Assembly (NCBI GenBank): GCA_030704615.1
Contig: CM060734.1
Coordinates: 13,826,001-13,890,000, forward strand
Reading direction: 5' to 3'
Length of the DNA: 64,000 nt
Source of the DNA: Takakia lepidozioides
Lineage: Eukaryota > Plantae > Bryophyta
Made by a program: the position numbers and the translations under genes. This document shows positions 6,601 through 57,010 of this stretch, one piece after another. Below the pieces are notes generated by a model. It was not told the origin of the DNA. It made no database searches and saw nothing but the letters and a program-made list of their open reading frames with translations. Positions within the stretch are counted from its first letter, which is position 1. Each line of letters opens with the position of its first letter.

Positions 6601-7189
6601 TTTTCAGGTTTGTGGGTGCAAGAAATGAAGCAAAGGAGCTGATTCTCTTATGGTGAGAGTGGGGCATGTGTGGAGCATGCCTTCAGCCCATTGAGGCTCT
6701 TGTTTTCAAGCTTTAGAGAGCTAGAACGGAAGGTCTAGGGCTGGTTTCCACTTGGAGTGAAAGAAAAGCACTTGTAGGGCCTATGTGAGTTGGGGTTTCA
6801 ACTTCAAGCTTGAAGGGAGCGCAACTCTTGAAGCAGCAGGTGTAGGGGGCTGGAATAGGCTCTAAGACAGATGCTATGGCCAAGGAGAGTGCTTGAATGA
6901 GTGCTCACAAGGGCTAGGAACCAGCAGGGCTTGGTTGTTTGCCATTGAGTTTAGTGGCGTGTTTGGGGAGGCTAAGTGAGAAAGAAGGCTTGGTTTGTGG
7001 CAACCACCTCATGGCTTAGGGCTACTATGGTGGTGTGTGGGAGCCGAAAGAGCAAGAATACCTTGCTGATTTCCTCACAACCGCCATAGCTCGGTGGAAA
7101 GAAGCCTAGAGTCCAAGAGACACAAACCCTAGCTTGGCGTGGCTAAACCCCTTGGAGAAATGGCTAAACTGCCAGAGCGGCCATGGATG

Positions 7190-8640
7190 GGGCTGTGCCG
7201 GGCTGCGCCGGTGGCCGTCAGGGCTGTGACGGGCTGTGCCGGTGGCCTTTTGGGGCTGTGACGGGCTGTGACAGGCTGTGCCCGTGGCCTTTGGGGCTGT
7301 GAGGGCTGTGAGGGGCTGTGACAGGCCGTGCCTGAGGCCTTTGGGGCTGTGACGGGCTGTGCCCATGGCCTTTGGGGCTGTGATGGGCTGTGACGGGCTG
7401 TGACAGGCCGTGCCTGAGGCCTTTGGGGCTGTGACGGGCTGTGAGGGGCTGTGACAGGCCGTGCCTAGGGCCTTTGGGGCTGTGAGGGGCTGTGGCGAGC
7501 TGTGACGGGCTGTGAGGGGCTGTGACAGGCCGTGCCTGGGGCCTTTGGGGCTGTGAGGGGCTGTGACAGGCTGTGCCCAGTGGCCTGTCGGGCTGTGACG
7601 GGCTGTGCAGGGCTGTGACAGGCTGTGCCCAGTGGCCTGCGGGGCTGTGACAGGCTGTGCCCAGTGGCCTGTGGGGCTGTGACGGGCTATGAGGGGCTGT
7701 GACAGGCTCTGCCCGTGGCCTTTGGGGCTGTGAGGGGCTGTGACAGGCCGTGCCTGAGGCCTTTGGGGCTGTGACGCGCTGTGAGGGGCTGTGACAGGCT
7801 GTGCCCGTAGCCTTTGGGGCTGTGAGGGGCTGTGACAGGCCGTGCCTGAGGCCTTTGGGGCTGTGAGGGGCTGTGGCGAGCTGTGACGGGCTGTGCCCAG
7901 TGGCCTGTGGGGCTGTGACAGGCTGTGCCCAGTGGCCTGTGGGGCTGTGACGGGCTGTGAGGGGCTGTGACAGGCTGTGCCCTGTGGCCTATGGGGCTGT
8001 GGCGAGCTGTGACAGGTTGTGATGGGCTGTGGCGGGCTGTGACAGGCTGTGGCGGGCTGTGCCCAGTGGCCTGTGGGGCTGTGACGGGCTGTGAGGGGCT
8101 TGACAGGCTGTGCCCTGTGGCCTGTGGGGCTGTGACGGGCTCTGAGGGGCTGTGACAGGCTGTGCCCTGTGGCCTGTGGGGCTGTGACGGGCTATAAGGG
8201 GCTGTGACAGGCTGTGCCCTGTGGCCTGTGGGGCTGTGACGGGCTGTGACAGGCTGTGGCGAACTGTGAGGGGCTGTGAGGGGCTGTGACAGGCTGTGCC
8301 CTGTGGCCTGTGGGGTTGTGACGGGCTGTGACAGGCTGTGCCCAGTGGCCTGTGGGGCTGTGAGGGGCTGTGAGGGGCTGTGGCCTTTGGGGCTGTGACC
8401 CCTGTGACCTGTGTCGGGCTGTGATAGGCTGTGCCCTGTGGCCTATGGGGCTGTGAGGGGCTGTGATAGGCTGTGGCCTTTGGGGCTGTGACCCTGTGAC
8501 CTTTGTAGGGCTGTGACAGGCTGTGCCTGTGGCCTTTGGGGTTGTGATGGGCTGTGACAGGCTGCGGCCTGTGGGGCTGTGACCCTGTGACCTGTGTAGG
8601 GCTGTGACAGGCTGTGGCCTGTGAGCTGTGTGGGCCTGTG
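7190..8640 (+). repeat. G-rich minisatellite (10-bp core GGGCTGTGAC / GGGGCTGTGA with GGCCTTTG/GGCCTGTG linkers) in the element's 5' leader
   Basis: Directly visible tandem array; a shorter homologous array lies at ~48100-48790 on the - strand in copy 2. Confidence 0.95.
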
Positions 8641-8782
8641 CTGGTCTGTGGTGGCCCGTGTTGACCTGTGGACGGCCTGTGCTGACTCGTGGAGGCACTG
8701 GTGGATTGCCTAAGGACTTACATGTGGTCTTGAAGGCCGAATTTTGAAGCTCGTGGAGGGCGGTTTGAGGAGTATCTTCCCT

Positions 8783-9738
8783 CTTGTGTGGCAGTGCCCG
8801 GATAAAGGCATATGCCTTCTGGACTTGTTTGGCGGGATCAGCACTGGATTGGATGCAGTGCTGCAGGCAGGTGTACGAGTTCGACGTTACCTGTATATGG
8901 AGAGGGATGAGACTGCACGACGCGTCTCAGTGCGCCATGTTGCTCAGTTGGTACAGCAGCTCCCTGATTTGTTGCTGGTATCTGCAGTTCGTGGATACCA
9001 ACAAGCCTTGTCAGCAAACATCTCTTTGCTGGGGGTGCATGATTTGGAGCGGGTTGGCCCTATTCACTTAGTAGTGGCAGGTTGGCCCTGCCAAGGGCAT
9101 TCATCAGCTGGGCATGGCAATGGGTTACAAGACTCAAGGTCACGCCTATTTTGGGAGATGTTGAGGGTCCCGCGTTATTTACAACTTCAGCAGACATACT
9201 CTCCGGCATATATCTTGGAGAATGTGCCATTGATGGGTGATTCTCGGGCCAAGGTGATGGCTAGTGTGCATCAAGTGCGGTCTTGGCTTGGGTGTTGCTG
9301 GATGCAGCTGCAGTGGGGTCACGGGCTCATCGCCCACGACTATGGTGGACCAACTTGATGCCACCTGCACTGCTCAAGCGTGCATTTGATGGGGTGCAGC
9401 GGCCACCAAACCTGACGGTGGATAGCATTTTGGACATAGGGAGGCAGTCTCAGCGTGTGAGACACGATGACCGATCACCTTTGGCAGTGGTCAATAAGGT
9501 GGGTCACCCACGAGCAGCATTGCCTACACTGCTCAGCTTTCCAGGATCTCATGTTTTCCGGGATGGTAGACCTGGCCTCTTGTGGGATAGCCAGTTGCAG
9601 CAGTTAGTGGAACCCAATGCTGACGAGCGCGAGCGGACGATGGGTTTTACCACTGGTACCACGGCGGTGCCATCTCTTTCTGAGGTATCACGTCGTCAGG
9701 TGTTGGGGCAAGCAATGGATCTCAATTGCTTGACCTAG
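8783..9738 (+). pseudogene. C5 DNA cytosine methyltransferase domain (DNMT3-like, non-permuted) within pol, copy 1
   Basis: Motif I LLDLFGGISTG, II YMERDE, IV VVAGWPCQGHS, VI YILENV, VIII AHRPRLWWTNL, IX ERERTMGF, X RRQVLGQAMD. Frameshift at ~9290 and TGG>TAG at 9736. Confidence 0.9.
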
Positions 9739-9747
9739 ATTATCAGC

Positions 9748-10847
9748 TTGGCTATGGCTGAGCAGCGCAGAGTGCGGAGTACACTTCCCTTGATAGTCTT
9801 TCTGCCTACCGAGACGGTACAGGCAGTGAGTGGGGGCGAACAGGTGAGGACCACGAGGTGCAGGCTGCATCCATGGCACACGTGGGAGGTACTCGAGGTT
9901 CAGAGGGAGTTGGTAGCCAAGGCGGCGGTGATGGATGAGGTTGGGGATTTTTCTCGGGTTGAGGAGGTCCTCAAAGATGAGATGGTAGGGCAGGATGAGA
10001 CATTGTCACTGACAGAGCAGGCAGTGGTCACTGCTCAAGAGGTTGCAGTCACGGAGGACAATTGGGAGCCTGATGTTGGACCCATAATCACCGGAGGAGA
10101 GAGACGACGTATACGGCGGTTCTTGAGGGCTTACAGGAACTGCTTTGCCTTCAGTTTGAAGGACTTGGGAGCACTGAAGGGTCAAGAGATTCGCATTGAA
10201 TTGGCCACTGACACGCCAATCTTTCGGAGACCCTATAGATACAGTGACATGGAGAGGTCCTTGATTCAGATGAGGACTCAGGACCTCTGGGAGGCTGGTT
10301 TGGTGGAGCTATCTGGTGGAGAATATGCTTCAGCCACAGTGATGCCAGCCAAGAAGGATGTCTATGGCAATTGGACGGAGAGACATATGTGCGGTGATTA
10401 CCGGCCTGTAAATCGTCAGACCAAATCCGATAGGTATGCCATGCCAACACCAGAGGAGATCTTTGATGCCATTGGGCATGCCAAGGTCTTTAGCACTTTG
10501 GATTTACGATCCGGATATCACCAGTTGCCGATCAAAGAGGCGGATAAGCAGAAGACGACATTTTGGGGGATCAATGAGTATGGGAAGGATTGCCTATACC
10601 AGTGGTGGTTCTTACCATTTGGGCTTAAGAACGCTCCTGCAAAGTTTCAGAGAGTCATGGACAGGATTCTAGCAGGGGTGGAGTTTGCTCGGTGCTACAT
10701 AGATGACATCATCATCTTTAGTGCTACGGTGGAAGAGCATGAGAGACACCTTCAGGTGGTATTTGAGCGCTTGAGGGCGCACGGATTGAAGTTACATCCG
10801 GGAAAGTGCAAGTTTTTCCACAACCAGATTGAGTATCTGGGTCACAT
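9748..10847 (+). pseudogene. Ty3/Gypsy reverse transcriptase (truncated), copy 1
   Basis: MCGDYRPVN, FSTLDLRSGYHQ, LPFGLKNAPAKFQRVMD, YIDDIIIFS, GLKLHPGKC, EYLGH motifs. Confidence 0.9.
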
Positions 10848-10945
10848 ACTACGTCCTGCAGTTATCGCGTGATCGAGGTCTTGAATCAGGCACCGAAGAG
10901 TTGATTAGGGAGGCCTGTGAATTGAGTCGATTGGATCAAGGCAAG

Positions 10946-35810: not shown

Positions 35811-38800
35811 TCCTGGGACGCACTTCCTAACCAGCAGACAGGCATGCCACCACCCTACATCCCCAAGAGATACAGCAAACACAGGAACTGACGAAATTGT
35901 GCGGACACAATTTCAAAAGAGAGGGGGGAATAAATGATAACGGCTAAGATACGAGGGCCAGACAGCAAGGGTCACGATGGGACATACCGGGTGGTGATTG
36001 GTCTACACTACGGGCAGAAAAGACTAAGTACGCGGCACTTAGCAAACGGCGGAACAAGGGTACATTACCACGGGAGCAGTATTGAGTAGTGTAGCAACCG
36101 TGGGCCGTGAACCACAATATCACACGGCCACGTTAGCATCGGCTTTTACTAATAGAGGAAGTAGTGAAGGACCGTGGACCGTGTACCCCGATGGCACACG
36201 ACCACTACAACGAGCCATTCTTTTTAGCAAACCCTTTAGGTTGCGTAGGCAGTTAGGCAACGGTCATTAACGATCGCAGGCTGTAATGGCTCTTTCGAGC
36301 ATAGTATAAAAGGGCTGCACACGACTTAGAAGGTATCAATGATTAGTGTGTATTCAGTGAACTCAGAGTGATTTGATGTGTACTTATGCTATGATGTGAT
36401 GAACTTTGAAGTAAAGCCATGTTATTCGAAGTATTTGTGTGTAGAGTGAACGTGAGATGGAGAGAATGTGTATCATCTCAAAATAGCTGTTGTCTTGTCT
36501 TGACTACCATCTGATTGTATGAACAAAGAGGCTTCAGTCTTTACGACTAAGATCTTTTAGGCCAATGAGACTGTAGGTTGGGCTTAATCAATATGATTAA
36601 GCAACCTGTAGAGATATTGATTCATACAACGGCCATGGTTTAGCTATCCTTAAAACGACTACTTTGTAATCGTTTCTGAAAGCATATCGTCAGACAACCT
36701 CTATTGCATGTTTTGGGAAATGGGCAGTAGTGCTGAGAGCCTGTTTTGTCTAAGTCATAAACCAACGGTTAACACATACTTCCTCCAGTGTACTGCAGCT
36801 TCTGTAGCATACTTCTTCAGAATGTCTTCCATTCTTTTCTCATAGTTATCTCTCTTTAACTTTTCCTTCTTCTTGGACTTTTTCTTAGCCTCTTGTTCCT
36901 CTTCCTCATCTGAATCATCTTCAGAGTCGTCATCATCCTTTTTATCCTTCCTGAGCATTTTTCCTTGCTCAATTCTGTTGGCTGTTTCAAATTCCTCTTC
37001 CACTGTATTATGTGGTAACATATCCACTTTCTTTTGTACCTCTGGTCTCAAACCATTTACAAACCAAGCCTTTTCTAAACTTGCAGGTGGCACATCAGCC
37101 AGTTTCCTGACCATTAATTCAATCTTTTCCAGATATTCCTCAACAGTTTCATGCTTCTTCTGTCTCAACTGTTGTAGGCTACTATACACTTCCTCCGCGA
37201 TTTTGCTTGTCCTGAATTTCCGGAATGCTATTCTAAGAGCATTCCAGGTTTGAAAATGGTTATCAACAAATCGTGCATACCACTCAATTGCTTTCTTGAT
37301 AAGTGAACAAGGAAATAATCTCAATTTTGCATCATCATCATTCTTGTTGTTCACTACACACATGTGCTCAAATTGATTGATGTGTACATCAGGATCCCCT
37401 TTTTCTTGAGTAAATCGGAAAATGTGGTCTCATACGTGTTGGAACTATTGCTGCCATCTGTGGCCCTTATACTACCGGCCCTGTGGCTAGTGTTGGACCT
37501 CCTGTGGGTGCTGGTCCTTGAGGACCCCATGTGGTAGTGGTTGAACCCCCACCAAGTGTTCCTTGAGCACTTACTATTACAGACCCCACTGTATTTGCAG
37601 TACCCCTAGTTCCAGTTGCACTACTTCCCACACTCCCTGTCCCCCCAAAGACGGATCCAAGCTGCTTGCCCGATCCCCCTGAGCCGACACCTTTGTTGGC
37701 TAGTGATCAAAGTGTGTCACTTGATCCTGGTCCAACAGGCTGGGATGTCCTGGTTGCAGTACCAACATCAACTATTGGGTCTATGTCTTCATAATCATCA
37801 TCTTCCAAGTTTCTATCTCGTCTTTCATCATCCAAATTCTTATCATGAGTTTCTTCTTCGCTTATATAACTCAATTGAATTGTTGTTGGAGAGTTTGAAC
37901 TCTCTGCAGGCTCTTCCTCATCCTCCTCTCCTTCATTGGCTGGTTTATCAGAAACTGGAGTTCCTGCTCTTGGTGTACCGTGCCAACTTTGATCAAAGAT
38001 TTATGTCAAATCTTTTATCCAGGGATGCACCTCCGATCTTTCCCCTTGAGATTAACCCTCTTCATGTACCAAATCTCTTAATCTTTCTTGTAAAGAATAA
38101 GAAAGAGTGGCATCTAAATTAGGATCTTCAGGTATTGGTGATGTACCATCTGGTTTTGGTGGAGTGAGAGGTCCATATGATTCTCCTATGTCTATTCCTC
38201 TCGAATATTCTCAAGAGAGTGCATGATGCTGATCCAGAGTGGGGTCTGGAAAAATGAGTGATAAAGATTTATCAAGTGGCCTGTAAAGGGAGAGCGAGAT
38301 GGGTACTGGTCAACACTAGTTTATATGATAGCGTTGCTATCTATTAAACGAGTAGAGTTTGAAAGCTGGGAAGAATCAAGAGTGAACGTTTACACTCATA
38401 TGCATGAAGAGCTTGAATTTAAAGAATTGGATTCCCAAGGATATCTTGTGGATCAAGCTTACACCAAAAACAGCTTTTCAGACCTGCCTACCATATGGTT
38501 ATATGGTAACTGAGTCTTCTAGTCTAGCCAAGGGTGCGTTAAAGCTCAAAAGAAATCCAGGCATGCGTGGTATGGCGGAGTTGTCTGCCATGGTTGCTCA
38601 CACTCCATTGTGGGGTACGAGCAAGGATTTGCAGCAGGCTGCTGATAGACGGGTGCAACAAGCCTGGGTAGAGGCCTTTGTACCGTCAAGAGAGGAGGAG
38701 AGTGCGGTGATTGCACCAGGACCACCTCAGTTGTCGCCATTGGACACCACACCTCTTGTGTGGCAGTGCCCGGATGAAGGCATATGCCTTCTGGACTTGT

Positions 38801-40856
38801 TTGGCGGGATCAGCACTGGATTGGCTATAGTACTGCAGGCAGGTGTACGAGTTCGACGTTACTTGTATGTGGAGAGGGATGAGACTGCACGATGCGTCTC
38901 ACTGCGTCATGTTGCTCAGTTGGTGCAGCAGTACCTTAATTTGTTGCCAGTGTCTGCAGTTTGTGGATACCAACAAGCCTTGTCAGCAGACATTTCTTTG
39001 CTAGGGGCGCATGATTTGGAGCGGGTTGGCCCTATTCACTTGGTAGTGGCAGGTTGGCCCTGCCAAGGGCATTCATCAGCCGGGCATATATCTTGGAGAA
39101 TGTGCCATTGATGGATGATTCTCGGGCCAAGGTGATGGCCAGTGTGCATCAAGTGCGGTTTTGGCTTGGGTTAGCAGTGTTGTTGGATGCAGCTGCAGTG
39201 GGGTCACGGGCTCATCGCCCACAACTATGGTGGACCAACTTGATGTCACCTGCACTGCTCAAGTGTGCATTTGATGGGGTGCAGCGGCCACCAAACCTGA
39301 CGGTGGATAGCATTTTGGACACAGGGAGGCAGTCTCAGCATGTGAGACACGATGACCGATCACCTTTGGTAGTGGTCAATAAGGTAGGTCACCCACGAGC
39401 AGCATTGCCTGCACTGCTCAGCTTTCCAGGATCTCATGCTTTCCGGGATGGTGGACCTGGCCTCTTGTGGGATAGCCAGTTGCAGCAATTAGTGGAGCCC
39501 AATGCTGACGAGCGCGAGCGGGCGATGGGTTTTACCACGGCGGTGTCATCTCTTTCTGAGGCATCACGTCGTCAGGTGTTGGGGCAAGCAATGGATCTCA
39601 ATTGCTTGACCTGGATTATCAGCTTGGCTATGGCTGAGCAGCGCAGAGTACGGAGTACACTTCCCTTGATGGTCTCTCTGCCTACCGAGACGGTACAGGC
39701 AGTGAGTGGGGGCGAACAGGTGAGGACCACGAGGTGCAGGCCGCATCCATGGCACATGTGGGAGGTGCTCGAGTTCAGGGAGTTGGCAGCCAAGGCGGCG
39801 GTGATGGATGAGGTTGGGGATTTTTCTCGGGTTGAGGAGGTCCTCAAGGATGAGATGATGGGGCAGGATGAGGCATTGTCACTGACAGAGTAGGCAGTGG
39901 TTACTACTCAAGAGGTTGCAGCATAGCAACCACGGGACGCGTCTTCTACCTCTAAGCCTGCTGGACTCAAGGTTGCAGTCACGAAGGACAACTGGGAGCC
40001 TGATGTTGGACCCATAGTCACCGGAGGAGAGAGACGACGTATACGGCGGTTGTTGAGGGCTTACAGGAACTGTTTTGTTTTTAGTTTGAAGGACTTGGGA
40101 GCACTGAAGGGTGAAGAGATTTGCATTGAATTGGCCACTGACACGCCAATCTTTCAGACCCTATAGATACAGTGACATGGAGAGGTCCTTGATTCAGATG
40201 AGGACTCAGGACCTCTGGGAGGCTGGTTTGGTGAAGCTATCTGGTGGAGAGTATGCTTCAGCCACAGTGATGCCAGCCAAGAAGGATGTCTATGGCAATT
40301 GGACGGAGAGACGTATGTGCGGTGATTACCGGCCTGTAAATCGTCAGACCAAGTCCGATAGGTATGCCATGCCAACACCAGAGGAGATTTTTGATGCCAT
40401 TGGGCATGCCAAGGTCTTTAGCACTTTGGATTTACGATCCGGATATCACCAGTTGCCGATCAAGGAGGCGGATAAGCAGAAGACGACATTCTGGGGGATC
40501 AATGAGCACGGGAAGGATTGCCTATACCCAGTGGCGGTTCTTACCATTTGGGCTTAGGAACGCTCCTGCAGAGTTTCAGAGAGTCATGGACAAGATTCTA
40601 GCAGGGGTGGAGTTTGCTCGGTGCTACATAGATGACATCTTCATCTTTAGTGCTACAGTGGAGGAGCATGTCGTGCGCATACATATCGCTACACAACTAC
40701 ATCGTTGTCCAAAACCACACAACACATGTGCACACCACACACTAGTATACCACTAGTCCCCACTAGTCCAGCCACTAGTCCAACCACTATGCTACAACTA
40801 GTCAGTCACTAGGCTGCCACTATGCTGCCCACTATGGCAGTCACTAGTCCACACAA

Positions 40857-41373
40857 TGATAAAGAAGAAGAATACAAGCACAAGCTCATGCGAACTCACA
40901 AAGCTGAAGCATAAACTCATGCATATATAACCTCATCACTCAAATACAAGTCAAGCCAAGTGCACCCCACGCCATGGGGAATCCACACTACGGCGCCATA
41001 GCTAGGCGCGGTGAGGCTCAACTCGAGAAAGATGAGCCTCCCGCGCTTGCCATGAAGATAATCACTCCAGGGCCTAAATCTGCCTTGACCCCTGGATTGA
41101 CACTTGGGCCAATCCCAAATGTCAATATGTAAAAGCTAGCTATTTCCTAGCTAGTTTCACACTAGTGGTAAAATAACTTGACAGCTGTCGTGCGCATACA
41201 TATCGCTACACAACTACATCGTTGTCCAAAACCACACAACACATGTGCACACCACACACTAGTATACCACTAGTCCACCACTAGTCCAGCCACTAGTCCA
41301 ACCACTAGGCTACAACTAGTCAGTCACTAGGCTGCCACTATGCTGCCCACTATGGCAGTCACTAGTCCACACA
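40857..41373 (-). repeat. Only intact LTR unit (B1+GC+A2, 517 bp, TG…CA) of copy 2
   Basis: On the - strand it starts TGTGTGG right after the purine tract AGCAGGGGGGCGAT, ends TTTATCA, and contains the palindrome GACAGCTGTC at 41180-41189. Confidence 0.8.
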
Positions 41374-41387
41374 ATCGCCCCCCTGCT
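41374..41387 (-). promoter_or_regulatory. Polypurine tract (PPT)
   Basis: AGCAGGGGGGCGAT immediately upstream of the B1 TG on the - strand, downstream of integrase. Confidence 0.7.
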
Positions 41388-41475
41388 GTGCTTAGGTCCC
41401 TCTAAGTCCAGGTAGCCACAAGATGTGATAGTGACCATAGCCTCACTAAGTCCTCCACCATTATCCCTACTACAC

Positions 41476-42943
41476 TCAAACTCGATACCCTTTGGCAGAC
41501 CCACAGAGCATGCACCTCAAACCTGCAGGTACCACTGCCAAGTTTGGGTCAACTCTGCCATCGACATTGGGAAGGTGACATGGCGCACAATTACGCACAT
41601 GGTCCTTCCAAGTCATGCCATCCCGACCCTCCAAGATCAGGACCCCTGAGGGCAACACCTCTCGAACCCTCAGAATACGCCCTGCAGTAACATCCAGAGT
41701 CGTAGGAGCAGTCTGCTGCAAATAAACATAGTCACCAGGGCTAAACCTCCGAACCCCAGGACGATATCCTCCACCACGTATAGTGGCATACCTCAACGTA
41801 TCACGGTGCTGTGCAATGGCAAGGTTCTCAAAAGCCATGGGCATGACTTTCTTGAACAACTCTGCACGCTGATCACATGCACGTACCCACACGTCCGGAT
41901 CGTCAAGGTTAAGGACTTGAGCAGTGTCCCTACGAATGGCTGCAGGCAAATCCGGCTCTCGGCCAAAGAGAAGGAAATATGGTGAGAAGGAGGCAAGTGA
42001 TGCTTGTTTGCTGAACCTGTAGCCCATGGCTAACCAAGGAACCTGAAGATCCCAATCTCCTAGGTGTCCCTTCTGCAAGCCATACTTGCGCAAACCCCTC
42101 TTCACCGTCTGAACAACTCTCTCTGCCAAGCCATCGGCCTCAGGATGATCCCGAGAAGTGGTGCGGTGGTCTATCAAGGCTTTATCACACAAAGCCTGAA
42201 ACTCCCCCAAGAACTCTCTCCCTTGGTCCGTGAGTACCTCAGCTGGAGCACCAAATCGGCTAAGCACACGATCCAAGAATGCATACGCAGCCCCCTCACT
42301 AGCCTTGTCAGGCAATGGAACCAACTCAATCCACTTGGAGAAGTGCTCCACCATCACCAACACATATCTGTGGTGGCGCATAGTCAGTGGCAACGGTCCT
42401 GCGAAGTCAAGACTCCACCTGTAGCCCAATCCCATGATTGGTAAAGGATGCAACTGTGGTGTAGGGGTTTGAATGAAGCACGCACCCTGTCACACACCAT
42501 GCACCTAGCCACGAACTGTTTGCACCTCTGTATGCATACCACCACCAATACTGCCCCTGCAGTAAACTGTGAGTGCGTCGCACTCCAAAATGCCCCAACT
42601 CCTCATGGGCATGCCGCACTAACCGTGCACGCTGTGTGGGGTGAGGCACAATCCTCACCCGACCATCCTCCCACACTCGAAATAGGTGTATCCCCTCCCA
42701 CTTAAACCTCTTGGCTCGTTGTAGGATCCGATCCCTCTCCCTGGCAGTCACAGTGGCTGCCGTGTCTCCTGTGCGGAGGTAGTCCAACACAGCCGAATCC
42801 TCATGTATATCTCTGGCACCACCTGGCTCATCACTAGCCTCAGGGTCCTCAGACACTCCGTCTACAGTCATCCCTGTTGTAGGTCCAACCTGACCTCCCG
42901 ATGCCAAGATACACAAAAATGCAGATGCGTGCCATCCCGACAC
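41476..42943 (-). CDS. Ty3/Gypsy DDE integrase (frameshifted N-terminal part) with C-terminal CxxC remnant
   Basis: HHCC region HAHEELGHFG…; core WSLDFAGP, VLTDQGREF, GLAERVVQT; C-terminal HVRNCAP then LRCMLCG. Confidence 0.9.
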
Positions 42944-43530
42944 ATCTCCTCGTCCGTCTCACCATGCCACCGAGCTCAGTGTCATCCTGCTGGCTCGCAT
43001 GGATTGCGACTCAATCCATCCGCATCCTTATTGACCAAACCCGGTCGATGCACAACCTGAACATGTCTCTCATGCTCCTCCACCGTAGCAGAAGAGGCAA
43101 AGCAATTCCTGCAAGCCTCAGGAACCGCCGTATACGTTGTCTCTCTCCTCTAGTGACAATAGGTCCAATGTCAGCTCCAATTGTCCTCCGTAACTGCAAC
43201 CTTAAGTCCAGCAGACTTAGAGGTAGAGGACGCGTCCCGTGGTTGCTATGCCAACCTCTTGAGCAGTACTCCTACCTGCTCAGTCAATGACAAGCCTCAT
43301 CCTGCCCCATCATCTCATCCTTGAGGACCTCCTCAACCCGAGAAGAATCCCCAACCTCATCTATCACAGCCGCCTTGGCTGCCAACTCCCTCTGAACCTC
43401 GAGCACCTCCCACGTGTGCCATGGATGACTTCGCCCTGTGGTCCTCACCGGCTCGCCCCCACTCACTGCCTGTACCGTCTCGGTAGGCAGAGAGACCATC
43501 GAGGGAAGTGTACTCCGCACTCTGCGTTGC

Positions 43531-44510
43531 TCAGCCAGACAAGCTGATAATCCAGGTCAAGCAATTGAGATCCATTGCTTGCCCCAACACTTGACGACGT
43601 GATGCCTCAGAAAGAGACGACACCGCCGTGGTACCAGTGGTAAAACCCATTGCCCGCTCACGCTCGTCAGCATTAGGCTCCACTAACTGCTGCAACTGAG
43701 CATCCCACAGGAGGCCAGGTCCACTATCCCGGAAAGCATGCGATCCTGGGAAGCTGAGCAGTGTAGGTAATGCTGCTCGTGGTTGACCCACCTTGTTGAC
43801 CACTGCCAAAGGCGAACGGTCATCGTGTCTCACACGCTGAGACTGCCTCCCTGTGTCCAGAATGATCCACTGTGAGATGTGCTGGCCGCTGCACCCCATC
43901 AAATGCACGCTTGAGCAGTGCGGGTGGCATCAAGTTAGTCCCACCATAGCCGTGGACGATGAGCCCGTGACCCCACTGTAGCTGCATCTAGCAACACTGC
44001 TGACCCAAGCCACGACCGGACTTGATGCACACTGGCCATCACCCTGGCCCGAGAATCGCCCATCAGTGGCACATTCTCCAAGATGTATGCTGGAGATACA
44101 GCTTGATGAAGCTGCAAGTGGCGCAAAACCCGCACCATCTCCCAAAACAGACCCGACCTCGAGTCTCGCAATCCATTGCCATGCCCGGCTGATGAATGCC
44201 CTTGGCAGGGCCAACCTGCCACTACCAGATCAATGGAGCCAACCCGCTCCAAATCCTGCGCCCCCAGCAACGAAATGTCTGCTGGCAAGGCCTGCTGATA
44301 TCCACGAATTGCACACCAACAACAACTCAGGGTACCGCTGCACCAACTGAGCAACATGGCGAAAGTGAAACGCGTCGTGCAGTCTCATCCCTCTCCACAT
44401 ACAGGTAACGCCGAACTCGTACACCTGCCTGTAACACAGCAGCCAATCCGGTGCTGATCCCGCCAAACAAGTCCAGAAGACAAATGCCTTCATCCGGATA
44501 CTGCCACACA
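43531..44510 (-). pseudogene. C5 DNA cytosine methyltransferase domain, copy 2
   Basis: LLDLFGGISTG, VVAGWPCQGHS, YILENV, AHRPRLWW, ERERAMGF, RRQVLGQAMD across several frames. Confidence 0.9.
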
Positions 44511-44699
44511 ATAGGTGTGGTGTCCAATGGAGACAATTGAGGTGGTCCTGGTGCAATCCCCACACTCTCCTCCTCTCCTGACGGTACAAAAGCCTCCACC
44601 CAGGCTTGTTGCACCCGTCGATCAGCATCCCGCTGCAAATCCTTGCTCGTGCCCCACAATGGAGTCTGAGCAACCATGGTAGGCAACTCCGCCATACCA

Positions 44700-47410
44700 C
44701 ATGTCATCCTGCTCTCCCGGAGGTGGTACATCCTCTGAATGAGCATTGCCCTCAAGCAACTCTCTAGGCCAACTCACTGCCGCTGTGAATGCTGCTAGTG
44801 TCGGCATCTTGCCTCGCTGGGCAACCGCAACTCCTCCTATGAACGTCACAGGGAGCTGCACACGCCGGCCCTCCCCTGACTGCCATGCAGGCCTATAGGA
44901 AGCTGACTCCTCCCAAAAATCCAGGGTGAAGCCCATGGGGTACAACACTGCCCCACCAACCAGGACATCGTATGAGACTGCGTCTGTCACAATGGCCTTG
45001 GCTCGCATCACTGAGCCATCTGTAGGTGATCCGGCCGTAGTCTGATAGCCAACTCACGCCGTGTCATGCCCCGAGCCTGCTCCGATCCTCCCAGAGACGT
45101 CTGTATCTGGAAAGGACAAGGCTCCATATCCGCCTCCGTGAGGCCCAAGCCTGCAATAGCAGCTCTGCCCAGCATCAATGGCTGAGCTCCCGAGTCCAAC
45201 AAGACCCGCAGTGGCCGGTACCTCTTGCCTGCCGGTCCACTCAAACAGAAAATGCCATCCTGGTTGTCTAACATGACAACTCCAGGTGTCACCATGGCGC
45301 GCTCAATGGCTGGCCTAGCTGGCAGCTCCATCAACCTGGCAGCTGCAGCTTGCCATGGCGCCGCCGTGGCAGTCTTGACCCTCAAATCCGAGGATCCCTC
45401 CGGCACTACAACACCTCCCACTATCTCCGCAGAAGATGAAGTAACCTCCCCACTCTCACAGAGTGTAGCTGCCAGCCTGAACACCTCAGCTGGTCTTACC
45501 CCCGCGTCGCAATCATGGTAGCCGAGAACAATGGAGCCTGGCACACAGATGTGGCCGCTCCTAGCAGCACACTAGCTGCCGTAGCCTTGGCAACACTAGG
45601 TAGTGGTGCTACCCGTGTAGCTCTCCCCAATGGCATAGTAACCTCCGCCTCGGTAACAGTCGGGCGAGAACTAGGTGCCATGGATGGCGTCGACACTGTC
45701 TCCGCCAATGTGAATGACTGGAAGCCTAGCCTGACGGCTTGCCTCCCCACGCTGTGGATCCAACTCCACCTCTGCACCTCGTGGCTCAGGAACTCGTGCT
45801 GCTCCTCGAGTCACGGCTGCAGCAGACTCCACCTGCACTAGTGGTAGTGCTGCTCCACACATGAATCCCATGCCTCCCATATCTCCTCCCTCAGGAGCAG
45901 GAGGTGGACCATCCGGCCTTAGAGCCGGTACCACCTGAGCTGTAGCCATGGCAGCGAGCCTCTGCTCTAGCTGCTGAAGCCGGTTGGCCATGCCTTGGTC
46001 AACACCCTGACCTCCGCGTCCTTGGCCACGTTGAGCTTGCCCTTGGCCTGCACCTCGTGGCTGGCCACCTCGTCCTCTCTGGGCTGCTCCACCTCGCCCC
46101 CGGCCACCATTGTTCCCTTGGAACTGGCCTGGGCGCAACTCAGGATGCAAACCATAACACTGGGCCTCTCCATGCCCGTGCTTGCCACAATGCCCACACT
46201 GCAACTGTGCAGGCTGTGCATGTGCCGGCCCTTTGCCCCCTCTGGGCAATCCTTCTTGACATGGGGTCCTCCACATGTCCAGCACACCACATCCGCCCGT
46301 TGTGGCCAGCAAATGAAGGGAGAGACCCCTGCATCTGAGGTCCTCTCTGCCCTTCCCTGAGCTTCACCTGAGCCCCCTTGTTGCCTTGAGCACGTTGAGG
46401 TAGTGGTTGGCTAGGAGCACCACTACCCCGTGGTGTCTCCTTAGCAAATCCCACCATGACCACTCGTTCCTCCACCATGTTGAGCTCTATCCGCTCTGCC
46501 AGCAAAAACACATTTGCTAAGGTGGGTTGGGCCGCTTGTAGGAGAGTTGCATCCCGCACCCTTCTCCTCAGCTCCTTGTCCAATATCCCATACCAGAATT
46601 GGACTGCCTGAGCTTCCGTAACCCCTTGGGTTACATTTATCAAGCGCCTCATGCGAGTGAAAGCCTCCCTCAAGCTCTCGGTCGGCTTCCGTTGGAACTC
46701 TTGCAAGCTCCGCAACTTCTCTGTCCTCACCCCTTGGTAGTTCCCTCTCAACTCTTCGAAGAACTCCACAACAGGGTTGAAGGCAGGCACGGGTGCTAGT
46801 GCTGGTGCGGTAGTGGCTTGGGTGGACGTCGTAGCTACTGTACCACCAGTCCCACTAGTCCCTGCTACTTGCTGAAGCTGCCGGTGCAGCGGCAGGTGTA
46901 GCCACTGCCCTCGTGGCTCTAGTGCCCCTAGTGATGGAGACATAGTCGGGTGACCAGTACATCCCTCCACTCCTCGATCTCAACCTCATGCCCCCGCCTG
47001 AACTCATGGTAATCATCCATAGGCGGCCCCTCAAGGTGCTGAAACAGCCCTTTCCATGCCATGAAAGGCGTAAATAGTTGTGGATTGCGCATTTGCTGCA
47101 AATCACACCCAACTATCAAACTCTTGGATAAAATCATCCAACTCGATGGTGCCCACCGCCCCAGAGTACCTTCGTGGCCCCTTGGTAGCTCCATACATCT
47201 CCTCCATTGTGTCCCACAACAATGGCAAAGAAACAACTTGCACCGCCGGTATGAGTCCTCCTGATTCACAATCCGAATCAGAACCTTCCGTGAAGACACA
47301 GGAGGTGAAGGTGGCCTAAACCGCACACCTCGTCTCGTGTACCCACTAGTATCGCTAGTGCTCGAACCGGCACTGTCCCCAGCAACTAGTGGCACCCTCC
47401 GTGTTGACAC
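44700..47410 (-). pseudogene. gag (two zinc knuckles) and aspartic protease of copy 2
   Basis: Gag LQEFQRKPTESLREAFTRM; knuckles CWTCGGPHVKKDC and CGHCGKHGHGEAQC; protease VLLDSGAQ…YDVLVG; frameshifted. Confidence 0.85.
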
Positions 47411-50175
47411 TCAACCGGTCATGAACATGTCCCTAACCCCCTCTCCACAAGGTAACCGGGTAGAGAACCTGTTGCGGCTTATGGTTTGGAATACTAAGTT
47501 CCTAACATAGCCTACACCTGTACCTGCATCCACCGCAAGCACTCCTATGGTTGGCTGGTCATCACCTCCAACCTCACCACAGGAGAAACAATGATGGTCT
47601 GGCTGGTCATCACCCCAGCCTCACCATCGACAGCATGCTCTAGGACTGGCCGGTGATCAAATCCGGACCAATCACCTATAAAAACAAGCGCCCACACAAA
47701 ACTAGCATGGCGCACAGTCAAGCATGCAGGTATGGAGGGGATCCAAACACAAGAAATCAGAACGACAACTCCCCCACACCAAAAACAACTCCACGGTGTT
47801 GCTCCTGCAAGGACACCCCAGCCCAAACCCGGACTGACTCTTGCCTCCACCTACGGAAAGGTCTTGGCCTAATGAGAGGGTGGAAACTACGAGGAAGAGA
47901 AGCTAAAGCAATGCCTAACCCCAGCATGCCCTCATCCCAACACTCTTCCTCTCCTCTCTTCCCTCACTTGCATGACCATGGGAATATCATGAAGATACTC
48001 CTCAAACCCGCCCTCCACGAGCTTCAAAATTCGGCCTTCCAGACCACATGCCAGTCCTTAGGCAGTCCACCAGTGCCTCCACGAGTCAGCACAGGCCGTC
48101 CACAGGTCAACACGGGCCACCACAGACCAGCAGGCCCACACAGCTCACTGGTCACAGCCGTCACAGTCCCACAGGCCCTGGGCACATGGCCGGGGCCTGT
48201 CACAGTTGTCAGCCCGCCCCAAAGGCCTCATCACAGCCCAAGCTGGTCACAGCCCCTCACAGCCCCACAGCCTCAGGCACGGCCTGTCATCACCCTGTCA
48301 CAGCCCCTCACAGCCCGTCACAGCCCCAAGCCCAGGCCTGTCACAGCCCCTCACAGCCCGTCACAGCCCACCAACAGCCTGGGCCACACAGCCTGTCACA
48401 GCCCACACAGCCTCAAAGGCCTCAGGCACAGCGGCCCTCTCACAGCCCCAAAGGCCTCACAGCCTGTCACAGCCCCACAGCCCCGTCACAGCCCCACAGG
48501 CCACTGGGCACAGCCTGTCAGCCCGTCACAGCCCATGTCACAGCCCCTCACAGCCCATCACAGGCCCGCCTCCAGGCCACAGCCCCTCTCACACATCACA
48601 CAGCCCCTCACAGCCCTCACAGGGGTGGCACAGCCCTCATCTCACACATCAACAGCCCCTCAGTGGCACAGCCCCTCACATCTGGCACAGCCTGCCCGTC
48701 ACAGCTTTTCACAGCCCCACAGGCCTCACACACAGCCCGGCCTTTGTCACAGACAGCCTGTCACAGCGCCGGTGCCCTTTTGGCCAGTTTAGCCATTTCT
48801 CCAAGGGGTTTAGCCACGCCAAGCTAGGGTTTGTGTCTCTTGGACTCTAGGCTTCTTTCCACCGAGCTATGGCGGCTGTGAGGAAATCAGCAAGGTATTC
48901 TTGCTCTTTCGGCTCCCACACACCACCATAGTAGCCCTAAGCCATGAGGTGGTTGCCACAAACCAAGCCTTCTTTCTCACTTAGCCTCCCCAAACACGCC
49001 ACTAAACTCAATGGCAAACAACCAGCCCTGCTGGTTCCCACCCTTGTGAGCACTCATTCAAGCACTCTCCTTGGCCATAGCATCTGTCTAGAGCCTATTC
49101 CAGCCCCCTACACCTGCTGCTTCAAGAGTTGCGCTCCCTTCAAGCTTGAAGTTGAAACCCCAACTCACATAGGCCCTACAAGTGTTTTCTTTCACTCCAA
49201 GTGGAAACCAGCCCTAGACCTTCCGTTCTAGCTCTCTAAAGCTTGAAAACAAGAGCCTCAATGGGCTGAAGGCATGCTCCACACATGCCCCACTCTCACC
49301 ATAAGAGAATCAGCTCCTTTGCTTCATTTCTTGCACCCCCACAACCTGAAAATACAAGCTTCAGCAGGCTGAAAGCATGCTCCACATGCCCTACAGGGAA
49401 ACCAGCCCCTTCCTTCCTTTCTTGCACTCCCACACCTGAAAGTGCAAGCCTTCACCAGGCTGATAGCATGCTCCACACATGCAACCTCTTCACACAAGAG
49501 ATATCAGCCCCCTATCTTGGCTCCTTGGCTCCTTGATGCTCTCTAAGACAAGACTAAGCACTCCACAGCCTTTGCCAAGCTCCTGAAACCCTAAGGCTTA
49601 CATTTCCAGCCACAAGACACTTCTCTTGGTGCAAGAGCTCTTCTTCCAAGCTCTGAAACCCTAGGTGCACATTCCATGGCCTTGCCGCACCTCTTAGCTC
49701 CTGTTCCAGCCCTGCTCTCGCCATGACAAGAGCCCTCTCAATGCTGAAGCTCGAGATTGAAACCTCTCACCATACTCCACAAAGTGCACTGATTTGCCCC
49801 AAGCCAAATCAGCCCTTTCGCTTGGTCTTGCAATCCTTCACACAATGAAGCTCGCATTCCCAAGTCCAGTTCTCAGCTTTGCCACCAAAGCCACTATAAC
49901 CTGCTCTTGACTGGTCCTCTTCCCAATCGTGCTTGCTCATGCATGTACACAATCTGAAACCATCAAGGTGCTCTGGAATTACCTACAGTATGGTGCTTTC
50001 ATCTCTGAAGCTGAAGATCGAATGCCAAGGTTTACCACCTCGTAACCCACATCGCCTCCGCTTCTAACAACCAAGAGCTCCACGGTGCTCCTTGCATAAC
50101 AACTTGGTTTCTCTCATTCTCAAGCAAAAACCACAAGTGCTACAACTAACTCGTATCTAGCACTCATAGATACGA

Positions 50176-50191
50176 GCTCATCTTTCTCGAG
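50176..50191 (-). promoter_or_regulatory. Self-priming primer-binding site
   Basis: On the - strand CTCGAGAAAGATGAGC follows the LTR end TTTATCA and is complementary (17 bp) to 50355-50371 inside A1. Same arrangement in copy 1 (5653-5669 vs 5483-5499). Confidence 0.75.
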
Positions 50192-52189
50192 TGATAAAGA
50201 AGAAGAATACAAGCACAAGCTCATGCGAGCTCACAAAGCTGAAGCATAAACTCATGCATATATAACCTCATCACTCAAATACAAGTCAAGCCAAGTGCAC
50301 CCCACGCCATGGGGAATCCACACTACGCGCCATAGCTAGGCGCGGTGAGGCTCAACTCGAGAAAGATGAGCCTCCCGCGCTTGCCGTGAAGATAACCACT
50401 CCAGGGCCTAAATCTGCCTTGACCCCTGGATTGACACTTGGGCCAATCCCAAATGTCAATATGTAAAAGCTAGCTATTTCCTAGCTAGTTTCACACTAGT
50501 GGTAAAATAACTTGACAAGCATGAAAGACACCTTCAGGTGGTATTTGAGCGCTTGAGGGCGCACGATTGAAGTTGCATCCAGGGAAGTGCAAGTTTTTCC
50601 ACAACCGATTGATTATCTGGGTCACATGATATAATCCTGGAGGATTAGGAGTACAACAGCTAAGGTAGAGGCCATTGCACAGATTCCACCCCCGGATATG
50701 ACCGAGTTTGAGCTTTCATGGGGTTGCAAACTATTATAGACGGTTTGTCAAGGGATTTAGTGCCATTGCAAAGGCTTTTACCAAGCTGACCAAGGTGGAC
50801 CAGGACTGGCAATGGGAAGATGAAGCAGAACGAGCTTTTCAAGAGCTCAAGGCAAGGTTGACCTCGGCGCTCATCTTGACGACCTATCAGGGGGCGTCCT
50901 TTTCACTGCATACAGAATTGGAGCATGCTGGGGCTTGCGGTGCTCACACAGTTGGATGATGAGGGAAGAGAGTTCGTAGTGGCTTATGCTAGCCGCTTGA
51001 ACAACGCTGCAGAGGCTAAGTATAGCTCATATGAGGAGAGTGCTTAGCTGCAGTGTGGGTCATGGCACACTTCAGGTGCTATCTATACGGCAATCTCTTC
51101 ACCCTTGTCACGGATCACCAGCCACTCAAGTGGTTGATGGAGTCAGACAAGCTACGGGGAGCTTGCACGGTGGGCACTCATACTCAAGAGTATGACTTTC
51201 AGGTTGTGCATCGACCGGTTTGGTCACGGGATGCGGATGGGTTGAGTCGCATCCATGCACAAGCCAGCAGGATGACACTGGTGTTCGGTGGCATGGTGAG
51301 ACGGACGAGGAGATGGTGCCCGGATGGGAGGTTTACTATTTCATGAGCAGAAACCATGAGCCATGAGCCATGAGCCGCATGAGCCCGCATGAGCGGTGAG
51401 CCGAAGTCTAAGACACGCGAATTTCATGAGCGGACTTCTCCAAATTTGGAAATGCGGCAGATTAAACAAGTATTAAAATAATAGTTTTTTTTTAATTTGA
51501 CCTTGCCGTTTTTGGAAGTTCCAGATCTTGTAATGCGGCGAAGATATGTCGTCAGTAACAACTCCGCTCATGGTTTTTAGATCCGCTCATGGAAATGAAC
51601 CGTGCCGTGCAACGAGAAATCCAGTATACCACGGCAAAAGGACGTCGCATACTGGCCTGTATAGAGTATTCCGCGGTTTTACATGCCTTAACATTGGAAT
51701 GAAGCTGACCCTTTTGCCGCGATTGAACCAATAGAGTCTGCACAATTCTGTCATCTTCGAGTATTCGGCGGGAAAGGTTTGCGACTCAACTGGGAAATGC
51801 GGTGCCGCATTAGGGTTCGCACGTGCGAAATTTCTAGGCAGTTTGGTGTTGGTGAATGCCGCATCTACCAGTACCTACGACGTTACTTGGAAATGCGGCG
51901 CCGCATTTCCTTGCCAGGGGTCGAATGAGGAAAGCAAAGTTTGGGAGAGCAGAAAAACAGAACCCTCCAACACACAAAAATACATGCACGTGGAAACAAG
52001 TGAATGACATAGTATTATCTTAGTTCGAGCAAAACAGGTTACTGTAGGCAAGACATAAGTCGGACCTTTCTTTGGCCAGAGTCAGAGCTACTTGCAGCAG
52101 TACAGTTCTACTATCCGAAAAGGATAGACGTACCATAGTGTTGGGACCGCAAGCCAAGGTCACTGGTCGGGTCTCAACCCTGGTGCATG

Positions 52190-55100: not shown

Positions 55101-55746
55101 CTGGAAATTGGCATAGTCGAGAGCAGCCAGCTCGGAGCGAGAACCATCAGGTGATGTTGCCGTAGGAGCTGCACAATGGACCGGGTTGGAGTTATGCTCG
55201 AGGGTACATGCGTAGCACCTGCAGAGACGTCCATGTCGGATTTGAACACCGTGTGGAGGACATGGGGACCTCAATGCACTCATCTTCATCGTCGGAAATG
55301 TCGAATACGTCCACACGAGAAGCTATGGAGGGTCTTGACGGTCCAGGTCGGGAATGATTATCGTTGCATACCTCTCTGTTGGCAGTGGCCGCCTGTCGGT
55401 TTCCGGACTCCTTTGTGGATGGTGTGGGCAGCGACTGATTCGGAAAGGGAATGGGCATTCCCACAGCTCGGTACAGGATGGTGTCTGATGGGGGTACGTG
55501 CCATTCGATTCCGCAACCTCCGTCGTTACCTAGCACGACAATGGTCTCGTCAACCTGTCCAGGAACATCCTTCCTTTCTTCTTCCAAATAAACTGTGCCC
55601 GGTTTGAGCTTGAATTTGGAACAAAGGTAAGTTTCAGTCACTCTGCAAAGTCCTCCCTCGTTTGGGATCCAGGCTCTCCCAAGTTGCGGAGGACAGCAAA
55701 CTAGCGTAGGAATTCGGAGCCATCGAACACCGCACGAAGTTGGCAA
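52190..55746 (-). pseudogene. MULE-like DDE transposase with N-terminal Cys/His region and C-terminal SWIM finger (many frameshifts)
   Basis: CAHCKEPP…ACIHVGVHCHP; WVMFDHIKR (first D, ~54190); FMADNAQANW (second D, ~53980); AESVHSSW (E, ~53510); PTCN…CKHLYYV SWIM-like (~52240-52300). Confidence 0.65.
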
Positions 55747-56089
55747 GTGCGAGGTTCAGTATAGCGACAGACCAAGGCTCACAGGCACCATGCGGAGTCC
55801 ATCGACGATTGGAAGTCGCACATTGAAGTGGAAAGTATTGTTTCAAGCTACATGCATGAAGGTGGGAGGTGTGATTCCATAGCCAGTAAGTATGACAATG
55901 ATGGCCGATTCGGCGACGAAATAACATCTCCTGACAGTTTCTCCTGAGGTGGATCCAGCAGTATTCTCGGTGCAGACATGAACGTTCGCACTGACAAGTG
56001 CCAGACTGTAGTTAAAACGGTCAGACAACCAAGTTGTGCTCATCAAGACAGGCCGCAATTGTGTTTTCGGATGCAACCATTCAGGTTCC

Positions 56090-57010
56090 GCATGCGGAAA
56101 TGAGGTTCCGTTTCCGTCGGAGTGACTTTCATTGAACGGAAATACGGCGCCGCATTTCCGGTTGCATCTTTCATGACGGAAAAACCTGCACCATTTCCGT
56201 CGGGGGATACTCTCCAAACGGAAATGTTATTCCATCCAACAAGCACAGAAAACGCGGTACCGCATTTCCGTTCTGTGAATCATGAACAACGGGAACTGAA
56301 ATGCGGCACCGCATTTCCACCGAGTCGCACCATCCGACAACCAGAACGGAAATGCGGCGCCGCATTTCCTTTGTATCTCCCACCGCATTTCCGTCGGGTG
56401 AGGAACATGCGGTACGCATTTCCGTTCTGACCGGAAGAAATGCGGCACCGCATTTCCGTCCGAGTCGCACCTTCCGACATTCCAGAACGGAAATGCGGCG
56501 CGCATTTCCGTTTGTATATGAGGCCGGACGGAAATGCGGTGCCGCATTTCCATCCATGTGAGAACGGACCGGAAATGCGGCACCGCATTTCCTGAGACCA
56601 CTTTCGGAAATGTGGCACGGCATTTCCGTTCATCAACTAAGGTATGTGAAGGGGAACGGAAATGCGGTACCGCATTTCCGTTCAGATTGAAAATCATGAA
56701 CCACGGGAACTGAAATGTTGTGCCGCATTTCCGTCCATCGCACCTTTCGACATTCCAGAACGGAAATGCGGCGCCGCATTTCCTTTTGTATCGGACGGAA
56801 ATGCGGCACCGTATTTCCGTTCAACAACTAAGGTATGTGAAGGTGGACGGAAATGCGGTGCCGCATTTTCTTCCAACAAGTACGGATGTGTAGCTTCGTG
56901 ATGGTACTTAACGGAAATGCGGCGCCGCATTGCATTTTCACTCCAACTCATCAGATGGGACGGAAATGCCATGAAATGTGAACACGTGGAGCAACGGAAT
57001 TGCGGCACAT
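56090..57010. repeat. Array of ~17 palindromes (consensus GGAAATGCGGCGCCGCATTTCC) with variable spacers
   Basis: Copies at approx. 56138, 56248, 56298, 56348, 56437, 56488, 56529, 56570, 56605, 56657, 56712, 56761, 56796, 56848, 56912 and partial ones; lies between two divergent genes. Confidence 0.9.

Follow-up and report, generated by a model that had tools for sequence, protein, structure and literature searches.

Whether circular complementary DNA (cDNA) is a true precursor of integration for retroelements of the DDE type is an old question, and the joining of cDNA ends into a circle with two long terminal repeats (LTRs) is usually seen as a dead end for retroviruses. Elements of the PAT and Ngaro type integrate a circle, and they do so without a fixed-length target-site duplication (TSD). 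Here we analyze a stretch of 64,000 nucleotides from Takakia lepidozioides (Bryophyta; GenBank assembly GCA_030704615.1, contig CM060734.1, positions 13,826,001 to 13,890,000 of the forward strand), hereafter the window, in whose coordinates all unprefixed positions are given. On its minus strand, at 40669-50517, the window carries a retrotransposon of Ty3/Gypsy type that encodes a DDE integrase; both termini of its copies fall at a palindrome internal to the LTR, GACA-GC-TGTC.

The circular-precursor question was revived by in vitro cleavage of circle junctions: the integrases of foamy virus and HIV-1 act on the palindrome formed where two LTRs meet, cutting each strand after its CA, and in foamy virus exactly the 2 nt that separate CA from TG are lost (PMC1180852, PMC1905944; papers cited by PMC number are drawn on here through selected parts). 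In Klebsormidium nitens, KnitGypsy-Dnmt3 is described as combining Gypsy domains with repeats of the DIRS type (de Mendoza et al. 2018, PMC5890265, Fig. 4c legend). The curated Chlamydomonas repeat library (Craig et al. 2023, PMC9940879 supplement) holds at least 11 matches to the palindrome GACAGCTGTC, nine of them about 40-60 nt from a G-run; one of its elements, Gypsy-7a_cRei, has a left LTR without the final 8 bp (Fig. 6 legend) and is active in laboratory strains, with 86 new insertions in CC-4532. Self-priming primer-binding sites (PBSs) are described for Tf1/Sushi and Tcn1, Ty3/Gypsy elements of non-seed plants (PMC6317226), in a survey whose criteria were two LTRs with TG/CA and a TSD and which would likely miss permuted elements.

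Anatomy of the element and its insertion site

The element is 9,849 bp long and is flanked by AGCA on both sides. On the minus strand its order is A1, gag, protease, DNA methyltransferase (DNMT), a deleted reverse transcriptase (RT), integrase, polypurine tract (PPT), B1, GC, A2, T and B2, where B and A are the two parts of the LTR as defined by reverse transcription.

50192..50517, minus strand: A1, 5' terminal repeat, 326 nt, begins TGTCAAG (left att half-site)
41186..41373, minus strand: B1, first part of the RT-defined LTR, 188 nt, ends CACGACA
41180..41189, no strand assigned: palindrome GACA-GC-TGTC, the intact putative att site
40857..41183, minus strand: A2, 327 nt
40856, minus strand: single T between A2 and B2
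40856..40857, minus strand: A2/B2 junction, probable join of both cDNA ends; the A at 40857 fits either end
40669..40855, minus strand: B2, 3' terminal repeat, 187 nt, ends CACGACA (right att half-site)
40665..40668, plus strand: TSD AGCA, 4 bp, left copy
50518..50521, plus strand: TSD AGCA, 4 bp, right copy

The GC at 41184-41185 stands inside the palindrome and is missing from the element ends. Duplications of 3, 5 or 6 bp were tried at this insertion and none fits; 4 bp alone does. Coordinates, repeat order and the AGCA duplication had been mapped in an earlier note made from the sequence alone, and all of them hold. A1 and A2 differ by three substitutions and one gap, B1 and B2 by one substitution and one gap; because the repeats are thus about 99% identical, the insertion is recent. 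Its target was the RT gene of a related element, and the flanks rejoin into one RT gene: 39970-40670 and 50518-50627 match 10040-10741 and 10736-10847, within the copy at 8780-10850.

38567..40668, plus strand: left part of the host element (a relative, about 89% identical), with DNMT and RT up to the insertion
50522..51327, plus strand: right part of the host element, remainder of RT and RNase H
5337..10848, plus strand: second copy, 3'-truncated, with TGTCAAG start, no B upstream, and DNMT and RT

The start of this second copy at the same TGTC had been reported before and is confirmed as TGTCAAG, its 3' end being missing; the window's own species thereby contributes two 5' ends and one 3' end. 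The palindrome GACAGCTGTC occurs once in the 64-kb window. Since 2.45 matches with one mismatch are expected by chance, this lone occurrence proves nothing by itself; its conservation in relatives does. Two contigs unlike the window copy span the A2/B2 junction, at very high summed depth, in sequencing runs X1 and X4 of the window organism (X1, X3 and X4 are one sample, possibly the source of the window itself).

The stretch of host RT into which the element inserted matches the stretch that the element itself retains. An in-window contrast to the permuted element is a conventional Gypsy element at 27120-36774 (plus strand), with 841-bp TG...CA LTRs that are 95.7% identical, a tRNA-type PBS (read by eye) and decayed flanks.

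Ends, target-site duplications and palindrome in relatives

Relatives were sought in metagenomes, and the best 80 of 485 confirmed stretches were taken as loci. Among these, 46 were classified at their 3' end, three were cut inside the repeats by a contig end, and 31 were unclassified, having too little flank or belonging to other LTR families. Three scans of viral contigs gave no related locus. Three families (F1-F3) have integrases about 76%, 55% and 62% identical to that of the window. The LTR parts of the window element, F1, F2 and F3 are mutually unalignable except for one 30-nt patch; nonetheless, they share the ends TGTCA...CACGACA and the internal GACA-GC-TGTC, and the B1/A2 join is GACA-NN-TGTC or a decayed version of it in all four.

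The 17 distinct 5' ends (two in the window) comprise 15 with TGTCA, one with TGCCA and one with TGTTA, and B stands upstream of A1 in none. The 46 classified loci give 40 distinct 3' ends, 21 of them long (an A-B ending, mostly B-A-B) and 19 short (a single B). Two complete B+A LTRs, the conventional layout that the earlier note had set against its own reading, were seen at 0/17 5' ends and 0/40 3' ends. A perfect 4-bp TSD flanks nine of the 13 two-ended copies, window included; two more have one mismatch, two have none, and the duplicated sequences vary. Cross-paired controls gave 1/156 perfect matches and 14/156 with one mismatch, and matches of 5 or 6 bp were absent among the 13. Short copies with both ends show a perfect duplication in three of four cases. 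The loss of GC at ends fixed on GACA^GC^TGTC, proposed for the window copy, is supported; the accompanying expectation that collected copies would carry TGTCA starts, CACGACA ends and 4-bp TSDs was borne out as well, but B1-GC-A2-B2 is found in about half of them, the others being A-internal-B.

Perfect copies of GACAGCTGTC number 11 in 842 kb of loci, all at the LTR B/A position, those in L049, L069 and L075, relatives at 49-51% integrase identity, included. Palindromes with one mismatch follow the PPT in L005, L077 and L080, and one with two mismatches in L079. The spacer is GC in 5/9 full copies and AC, GT or AA in the others, variants that would mostly be the changes expected from methyl-C decay.

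The window copy is nested, frameshifted and deleted, as a one-off rearrangement, an autointegration or an assembly error at this locus might be. Autointegration gives random breakpoints, whereas the breakpoint here is conserved, and it was rejected. Three families share the layout, at 21 distinct metagenome loci in all; seven loci (five long, two short) were each assembled twice with the same arrangement, and none was long in one assembly and short in another; and the layout is also found in curated Chlamydomonas entries, as far as these were consulted. A one-off event of any kind can thus be set aside almost entirely.

Two distant relatives, L055 (7400-7721) and L058 (1690-1900), whose integrases are 48% identical, have a PPT but no GACAGCTGTC, and repeated CCTGCAGG words stand in its place; they may be a sister group with a different end structure.

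Integrase and coding content

The coding remnants of the window element, with those of its relatives, identify the machinery available for integration.

41479..42958, minus strand: integrase, with H2C2 zinc finger and rve core, D27, D87, E122 (D,D35E)
43040..43200, minus strand: RT and RNase H remnant; two large internal deletions make the window copy non-autonomous
43534..44500, minus strand: C5 cytosine DNMT region, frameshifted, outer limits approximate (PF00145, E 7e-14 in open reading frame (ORF) 43938-44384)
45011..45571, minus strand: aspartic protease fragment (Pfam PF13650, E 0.008, under the cut-off; relatives match the same family)
46143..46979, minus strand: gag fragment (Pfam PF03732, E 0.002, under the cut-off)
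48247..48622, minus strand: GC-rich 10-mer tandem array in the long 5' region

The D27, D87 and E122 triad is invariant in 32 aligned sequences and alignable with the Ty3 integrase, and the best PDB match is Ty3 Gag-Pol (E 3e-12), so that the DDE assignment made in the first reading stands. The pol order in L005, L016 and L073 is protease-RT-RNase H-integrase, and the window remnants follow it. A PHD finger, shortened in the window integrase, is C-terminal in most of the 120 listed homologues (of 336), and L003, L013, L016 and L052 have a PHD finger and no chromodomain; named organisms among the homologues listed are Marchantia, Klebsormidium, Volvox, Pleodorina, Tetrabaena and Haematococcus. 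At the level of Pfam family PF00145, a C5 methyltransferase lies inside gag-pol in the window element, L005, L013, L016 and L073. The window copy would have moved in trans, because most of its RT and RNase H is deleted.

Fixed-length TSDs of varied sequence, CA ends and the loss of central bases are the marks of DDE chemistry. Integration through the internal att site by the element's own DDE integrase is, in our judgement, very probable. The search for a tyrosine recombinase suggested by the earlier note found none in Pfam among 151 ORFs of 10 elements or loci (42 of the 54 element ORFs of at least 70 amino acids, plus 109 ORFs of nine loci with minima of 90-200 amino acids); the other 12 element ORFs are short frames that run antisense or lie in the LTR or the tandem array, and the result for four of the pol ORFs covers their best five families. 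It is thus very improbable that a tyrosine recombinase, own or borrowed, inserts the circle with the DDE integrase as a passenger: the catalytic triad is invariant, and the varied 4-bp TSDs, the CA ends and the lost central GC are what a DDE enzyme leaves. What speaks for such a recombinase is the A1...B1-A2-B2 order, which is the layout of PAT and Ngaro (PMC4157794).

Three side observations follow. The two large RT/RNase H deletions lie close together (43040-43100, minus strand) with about 35 nt kept between them, and the second joins two copies of a short shared word. The GC-rich 10-mer array is of very unequal length in the two window copies (7190-8623 versus 48247-48622). Some distant relatives seem to have a long extra coding stretch between the PHD finger and the PPT (L061:11330-11840, L074:5700-6750, L080:4950-5600).

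Priming and the predicted cDNA

The form in which the element would leave reverse transcription can be predicted from three sites.

50176..50192, minus strand: self-priming PBS, immediately after A1, 17 nt starting at the last A1 base
50355..50371, minus strand: predicted self-primer, A positions 147-163, exact complement of the PBS, near the probable transcript start
41378..41384, minus strand: PPT AGGGGGG, four bases ahead of B1

The PBS lies after A1, where it had been placed before, but it is of the self-priming type and not a tRNA site. The 17-nt complement of PBS and primer was reached by 0/200 shuffles. When 16 5' ends were tested in this way, the complement was unmatched by 200 shuffles in nine, reached by at most five shuffles in two, and did worse in five. 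The complement is kept with different paired sequences in the window family, F1 and F2, and a G-rich PPT stands directly before B1 in all four families.

Standard LTR reverse transcription from these positions yields linear B-GC-A-internal-B-GC-A. Since this is the predicted cDNA, the inserted form is a permutation of it. The identification of B+A as the RT-defined LTR, already made by the earlier note, holds; the TG...CA ends assigned to it hold in the window family but not in F2 (ATACATG...CAAT) or F3 (ATTTG...TTGA). The TG/CA of the cDNA ends is thus not kept in F2 and F3, while the internal palindrome is conserved.

A proposed route to the inserted forms

We lean towards a route in which the cDNA ends are joined, likely into a circle, and the integrase acts at the palindrome reached from the left cDNA end. 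Self-primed reverse transcription would give the linear cDNA predicted from PBS and PPT. As their conservation shows, the half-sites ...GACA and TGTC... lie together, 2 bases apart, one B-length inside the left cDNA end. Host end-joining would link the cDNA ends to form the A|B junction. The palindrome that the integrase reaches from the left cDNA end would then be cut on each strand behind CA, with 5'-GC overhangs as the result; insertion with a 4-bp stagger would produce A-internal-B-GC-A-B. Short A-internal-B copies would arise from one-LTR circles or from cutting both palindromes of linear cDNA. Cuts of this kind leave 3' ends in CA beside overhangs of 5'-GC, a geometry like that of retroviral ends after processing, and would account for the lost GC and the TSD; the foamy virus and HIV-1 integrases, acting on palindromic circle junctions, provide a biochemical precedent. 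Joining of the cDNA ends is required by this scheme because the right end of the long copies is obtainable in no other way.

The junctions of F2 bear on the joining step. Among its 14 copies five junctions are blunt, one is a same-length variant and eight are changed in length: one is longer by 1 nt, two are shorter by 1 nt, three by 2 nt, one by about 7 nt and one by about 215 nt, this last at a short word common to both sides. The background is 16 indel events across 4,294 bp of paired repeats, a figure that reflects decay after insertion and not divergence between subfamilies. One starred three-copy clade of the F2 tree contains three junction types, and short and long copies are intermixed. 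Variability of length in 8/14 junctions is what end-joining would give, and the likeness of A2|B2 to a join of cDNA ends, first pointed out for the single window copy, is borne out.

Short copies are as old as long ones, with terminal branches of 0.069 (n=9) versus 0.070 (n=14), and no solo A|B unit was noticed among the repeat matches in the loci. Slow B-by-B recombination after insertion was rejected as their source on these two grounds, which bear on slow recombination only. Assembly collapse is an unlikely source, as B1 and B2 differ by 6-13% in long copies and no locus occurs in both forms. Only long copies keep the R region at both ends, and hence only they could presumably replicate by the standard route.

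Several observations weigh against joining and a two-LTR circle. The F2 tree is mostly unresolved (2/20 inner branches starred). The junction is constant in F1 (5/5) and F3 (3/3), which fits templated inheritance as well as precise ligation. The 19/40 short 3' ends need no two-LTR circle, and the mirror form, A-B-A-internal-B, was found at 0/17 5' ends. A two-LTR circle has two identical palindromes, yet in each of the 10 long copies whose 5' end is visible it was the left one that had been opened; equal use of both would give this result with a probability of about 0.001, so that the circle calls for an additional rule. L064 and L032 are the two copies of 13 without a TSD. After the integrase of the distant relatives L055, L058, L059, L061 and L074 there is no clear palindrome. 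The evidence for a covalent circle as the integrase substrate comes from inserted copies, and we put this claim only a little above even. Of the earlier proposal of a two-LTR circle cut at its palindrome, the att site and the 4-bp stagger are supported; the circle is a reconstruction, and neither the short copies nor the missing mirror form had been foreseen.

A free circle can be dispensed with if linear cDNA is cut by the integrase at the palindrome of its left LTR and the two halves are then inserted, the loose cDNA ends being joined by host repair in the chromosome. Ends, TSD, lost GC and variable junction are explained equally well; loading from the left cDNA end would account for the missing mirror form, and cutting of both palindromes would give the short copies. 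This scheme, however, leaves a chromosomal break at each insertion, and it is hard to apply to the 8-bp B of Gypsy-7a, where the right-end piece would be too short to hold alone. We consider it unlikely, if far from negligible. Alternatively, the A|B junction could be made by reverse transcriptase, through an end-to-end template jump or PAT/Ngaro-like copying of a donor B2, before the integrase acts at the palindrome. The fixed junctions of F1 and F3, in which one base fits either end as in the window, agree with this, and a strand-specific jump could yield the asymmetry. Against it, a standard template would contain neither B2 nor the first 146 nt of A1, given that the PPT adjoins B1 and the PBS adjoins A1, and the F2 junctions, which span +1 to about -215 nt, are distributed without regard to the tree; we rate such an origin as improbable, though it is, like repair after insertion, a live rival.

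A separate observation concerns L071 (2494-2600), where about 99 bp of A stand ahead of a full A1, inside the TSD. It is either a tandem duplication or a remnant of the mirror form, of which it would be the only possible trace.

Other features of the window

The best named matches of the window host gene are in land plants. An intronless aspartate-semialdehyde dehydrogenase gene of land-plant type lies at 22829-24124 (minus strand); exons of kinesin and of ETF lie near 11670 and near 2422-2877, respectively. A palindromic word like GAAATGCGGCGCCGCATTTC recurs in at least 16 dispersed copies over 51777-62604, with a cluster at 56122-56939, and possibly belongs to a Helitron or a miniature inverted-repeat transposable element (MITE) family. 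A MITE-like inverted-repeat element with arms of CAATTCAATTGAATTG units occupies 20627-21848.

Comparison with known systems

KnitGypsy-Dnmt3 and the window element are alike in their Gypsy domains, the C5 methyltransferase in pol and the DIRS-like repeat layout (PMC5890265). The K. nitens protein KFL_009030040, which combines rve and DNMT, is 59% identical to the window integrase and falls with it in a group of 17 (support 100/99) in a 33-row integrase tree with midpoint root and no outgroup; it is probably KnitGypsy-Dnmt3. The consulted main text of PMC5890265 does not use the word 'circular', mentions a TSD only for long interspersed nuclear elements, and offers no att palindrome, priming, short form or mechanism.

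The Chlamydomonas elements Gypsy-14a, -18 and -22_cRei resemble the window element in that they start with TGTC and carry a G-run, B, GACAGCTGTC and A, then B at the end (by eye; PMC9940879). Read whole, Gypsy-14a and -18 are A...B-GC-A-B, and -22, -14b and Gypsy-3_cInc fit from their ends (by eye); Gypsy-14a_cRei also encodes the same integrase motifs as the window group (by eye). B measures about 50-60 bp or about 8 bp in Chlamydomonas, compared with 97-200 bp in the plant-type families. In Gypsy-7a, -7b, -8a, -2a, -10b and -11 the internal part ends ...ACAGC before a TGT start (by eye). That of Gypsy-7a_cRei ends in a G-run, 8 bp and GC, and the same 8 bp recur at the LTR end (by eye); unlike the window group, this element has a tRNA-type PBS (by eye) and different integrase motifs, and is likened to it by layout alone. 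In Gypsy-21_cRei (part 297) and Gypsy-5a_cRei (part 280) of the PMC9940879 supplement the palindrome lies across the boundary between the 5' LTR, which ends ...GACA, and the internal part, which starts GCTGTC...; this is another arrangement of the motif and perhaps the mirror form.

No mechanism for the layout in Gypsy elements is given in the portion of PMC9940879 consulted, although the Craig 2021 thesis that it cites may describe one, and the consulted parts of PMC9977147, PMC8226300, PMC8557442 and PMC12477816 contain nothing on such a layout. The literature searched, with subscription journals, Repbase and the Craig 2021 thesis outside its reach, holds no description of an internal att site or a circle route for Gypsy. 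The earlier suggestion that the pathway is undescribed for Ty3/Gypsy needs to be narrowed accordingly: the layout is already on record (PMC5890265, PMC9940879), and the mechanism apparently is not.

Tentatively, and with slightly less than even confidence, we suggest that a Gypsy lineage ranging from chlorophyte algae to land plants moved both att sites to an LTR-internal palindrome. End-joining would thereby have become a requirement for a replication-competent copy, the normal substrate would be the two-LTR circle, and the series of B lengths (8, about 55 and 97-200 bp) would be the trace of a gradual passage from conventional LTRs to split repeats of the PAT/Ngaro type without a tyrosine recombinase. 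The signature is borne, family-wide, by the inserted copies themselves. If the suggestion is true, the boundary between LTR and DIRS-type elements is blurred and a route to split direct repeats is indicated; LTR finders that require two terminal LTRs would overlook or misinterpret a widespread group in which DNA methyltransferases are also encoded. From the point of view of mechanism, an integrase able to open an internal palindrome of 10 bp is of interest. The model is already open to testing, because an element with a related layout is currently mobile in laboratory strains of Chlamydomonas.

The window element shares the A1...B1-A2-B2 split direct repeats of PAT, TOC, Kangaroo and Ngaro, which have a tyrosine recombinase where the window element instead has a DDE integrase, a PPT, a PBS and a 4-bp TSD (PMC4157794). 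It is not a member of the PAT/Ngaro group, as its split repeats come with a fixed 4-bp TSD and no tyrosine recombinase was found in the ORFs scanned; it is Gypsy-type by its proteins and not a conventional LTR element by its structure. The self-priming PBS is held in common with Tf1/Sushi and Tcn1 (PMC6317226), chromoviruses that have a chromodomain and conventional LTRs, whereas the window group has a PHD finger and permuted repeats. In foamy virus and HIV-1 the palindrome is formed by the joining of cDNA ends, and the provirus is therefore colinear; in the window group it is part of the LTR itself, at a distance from the junction, and the product is therefore permuted.

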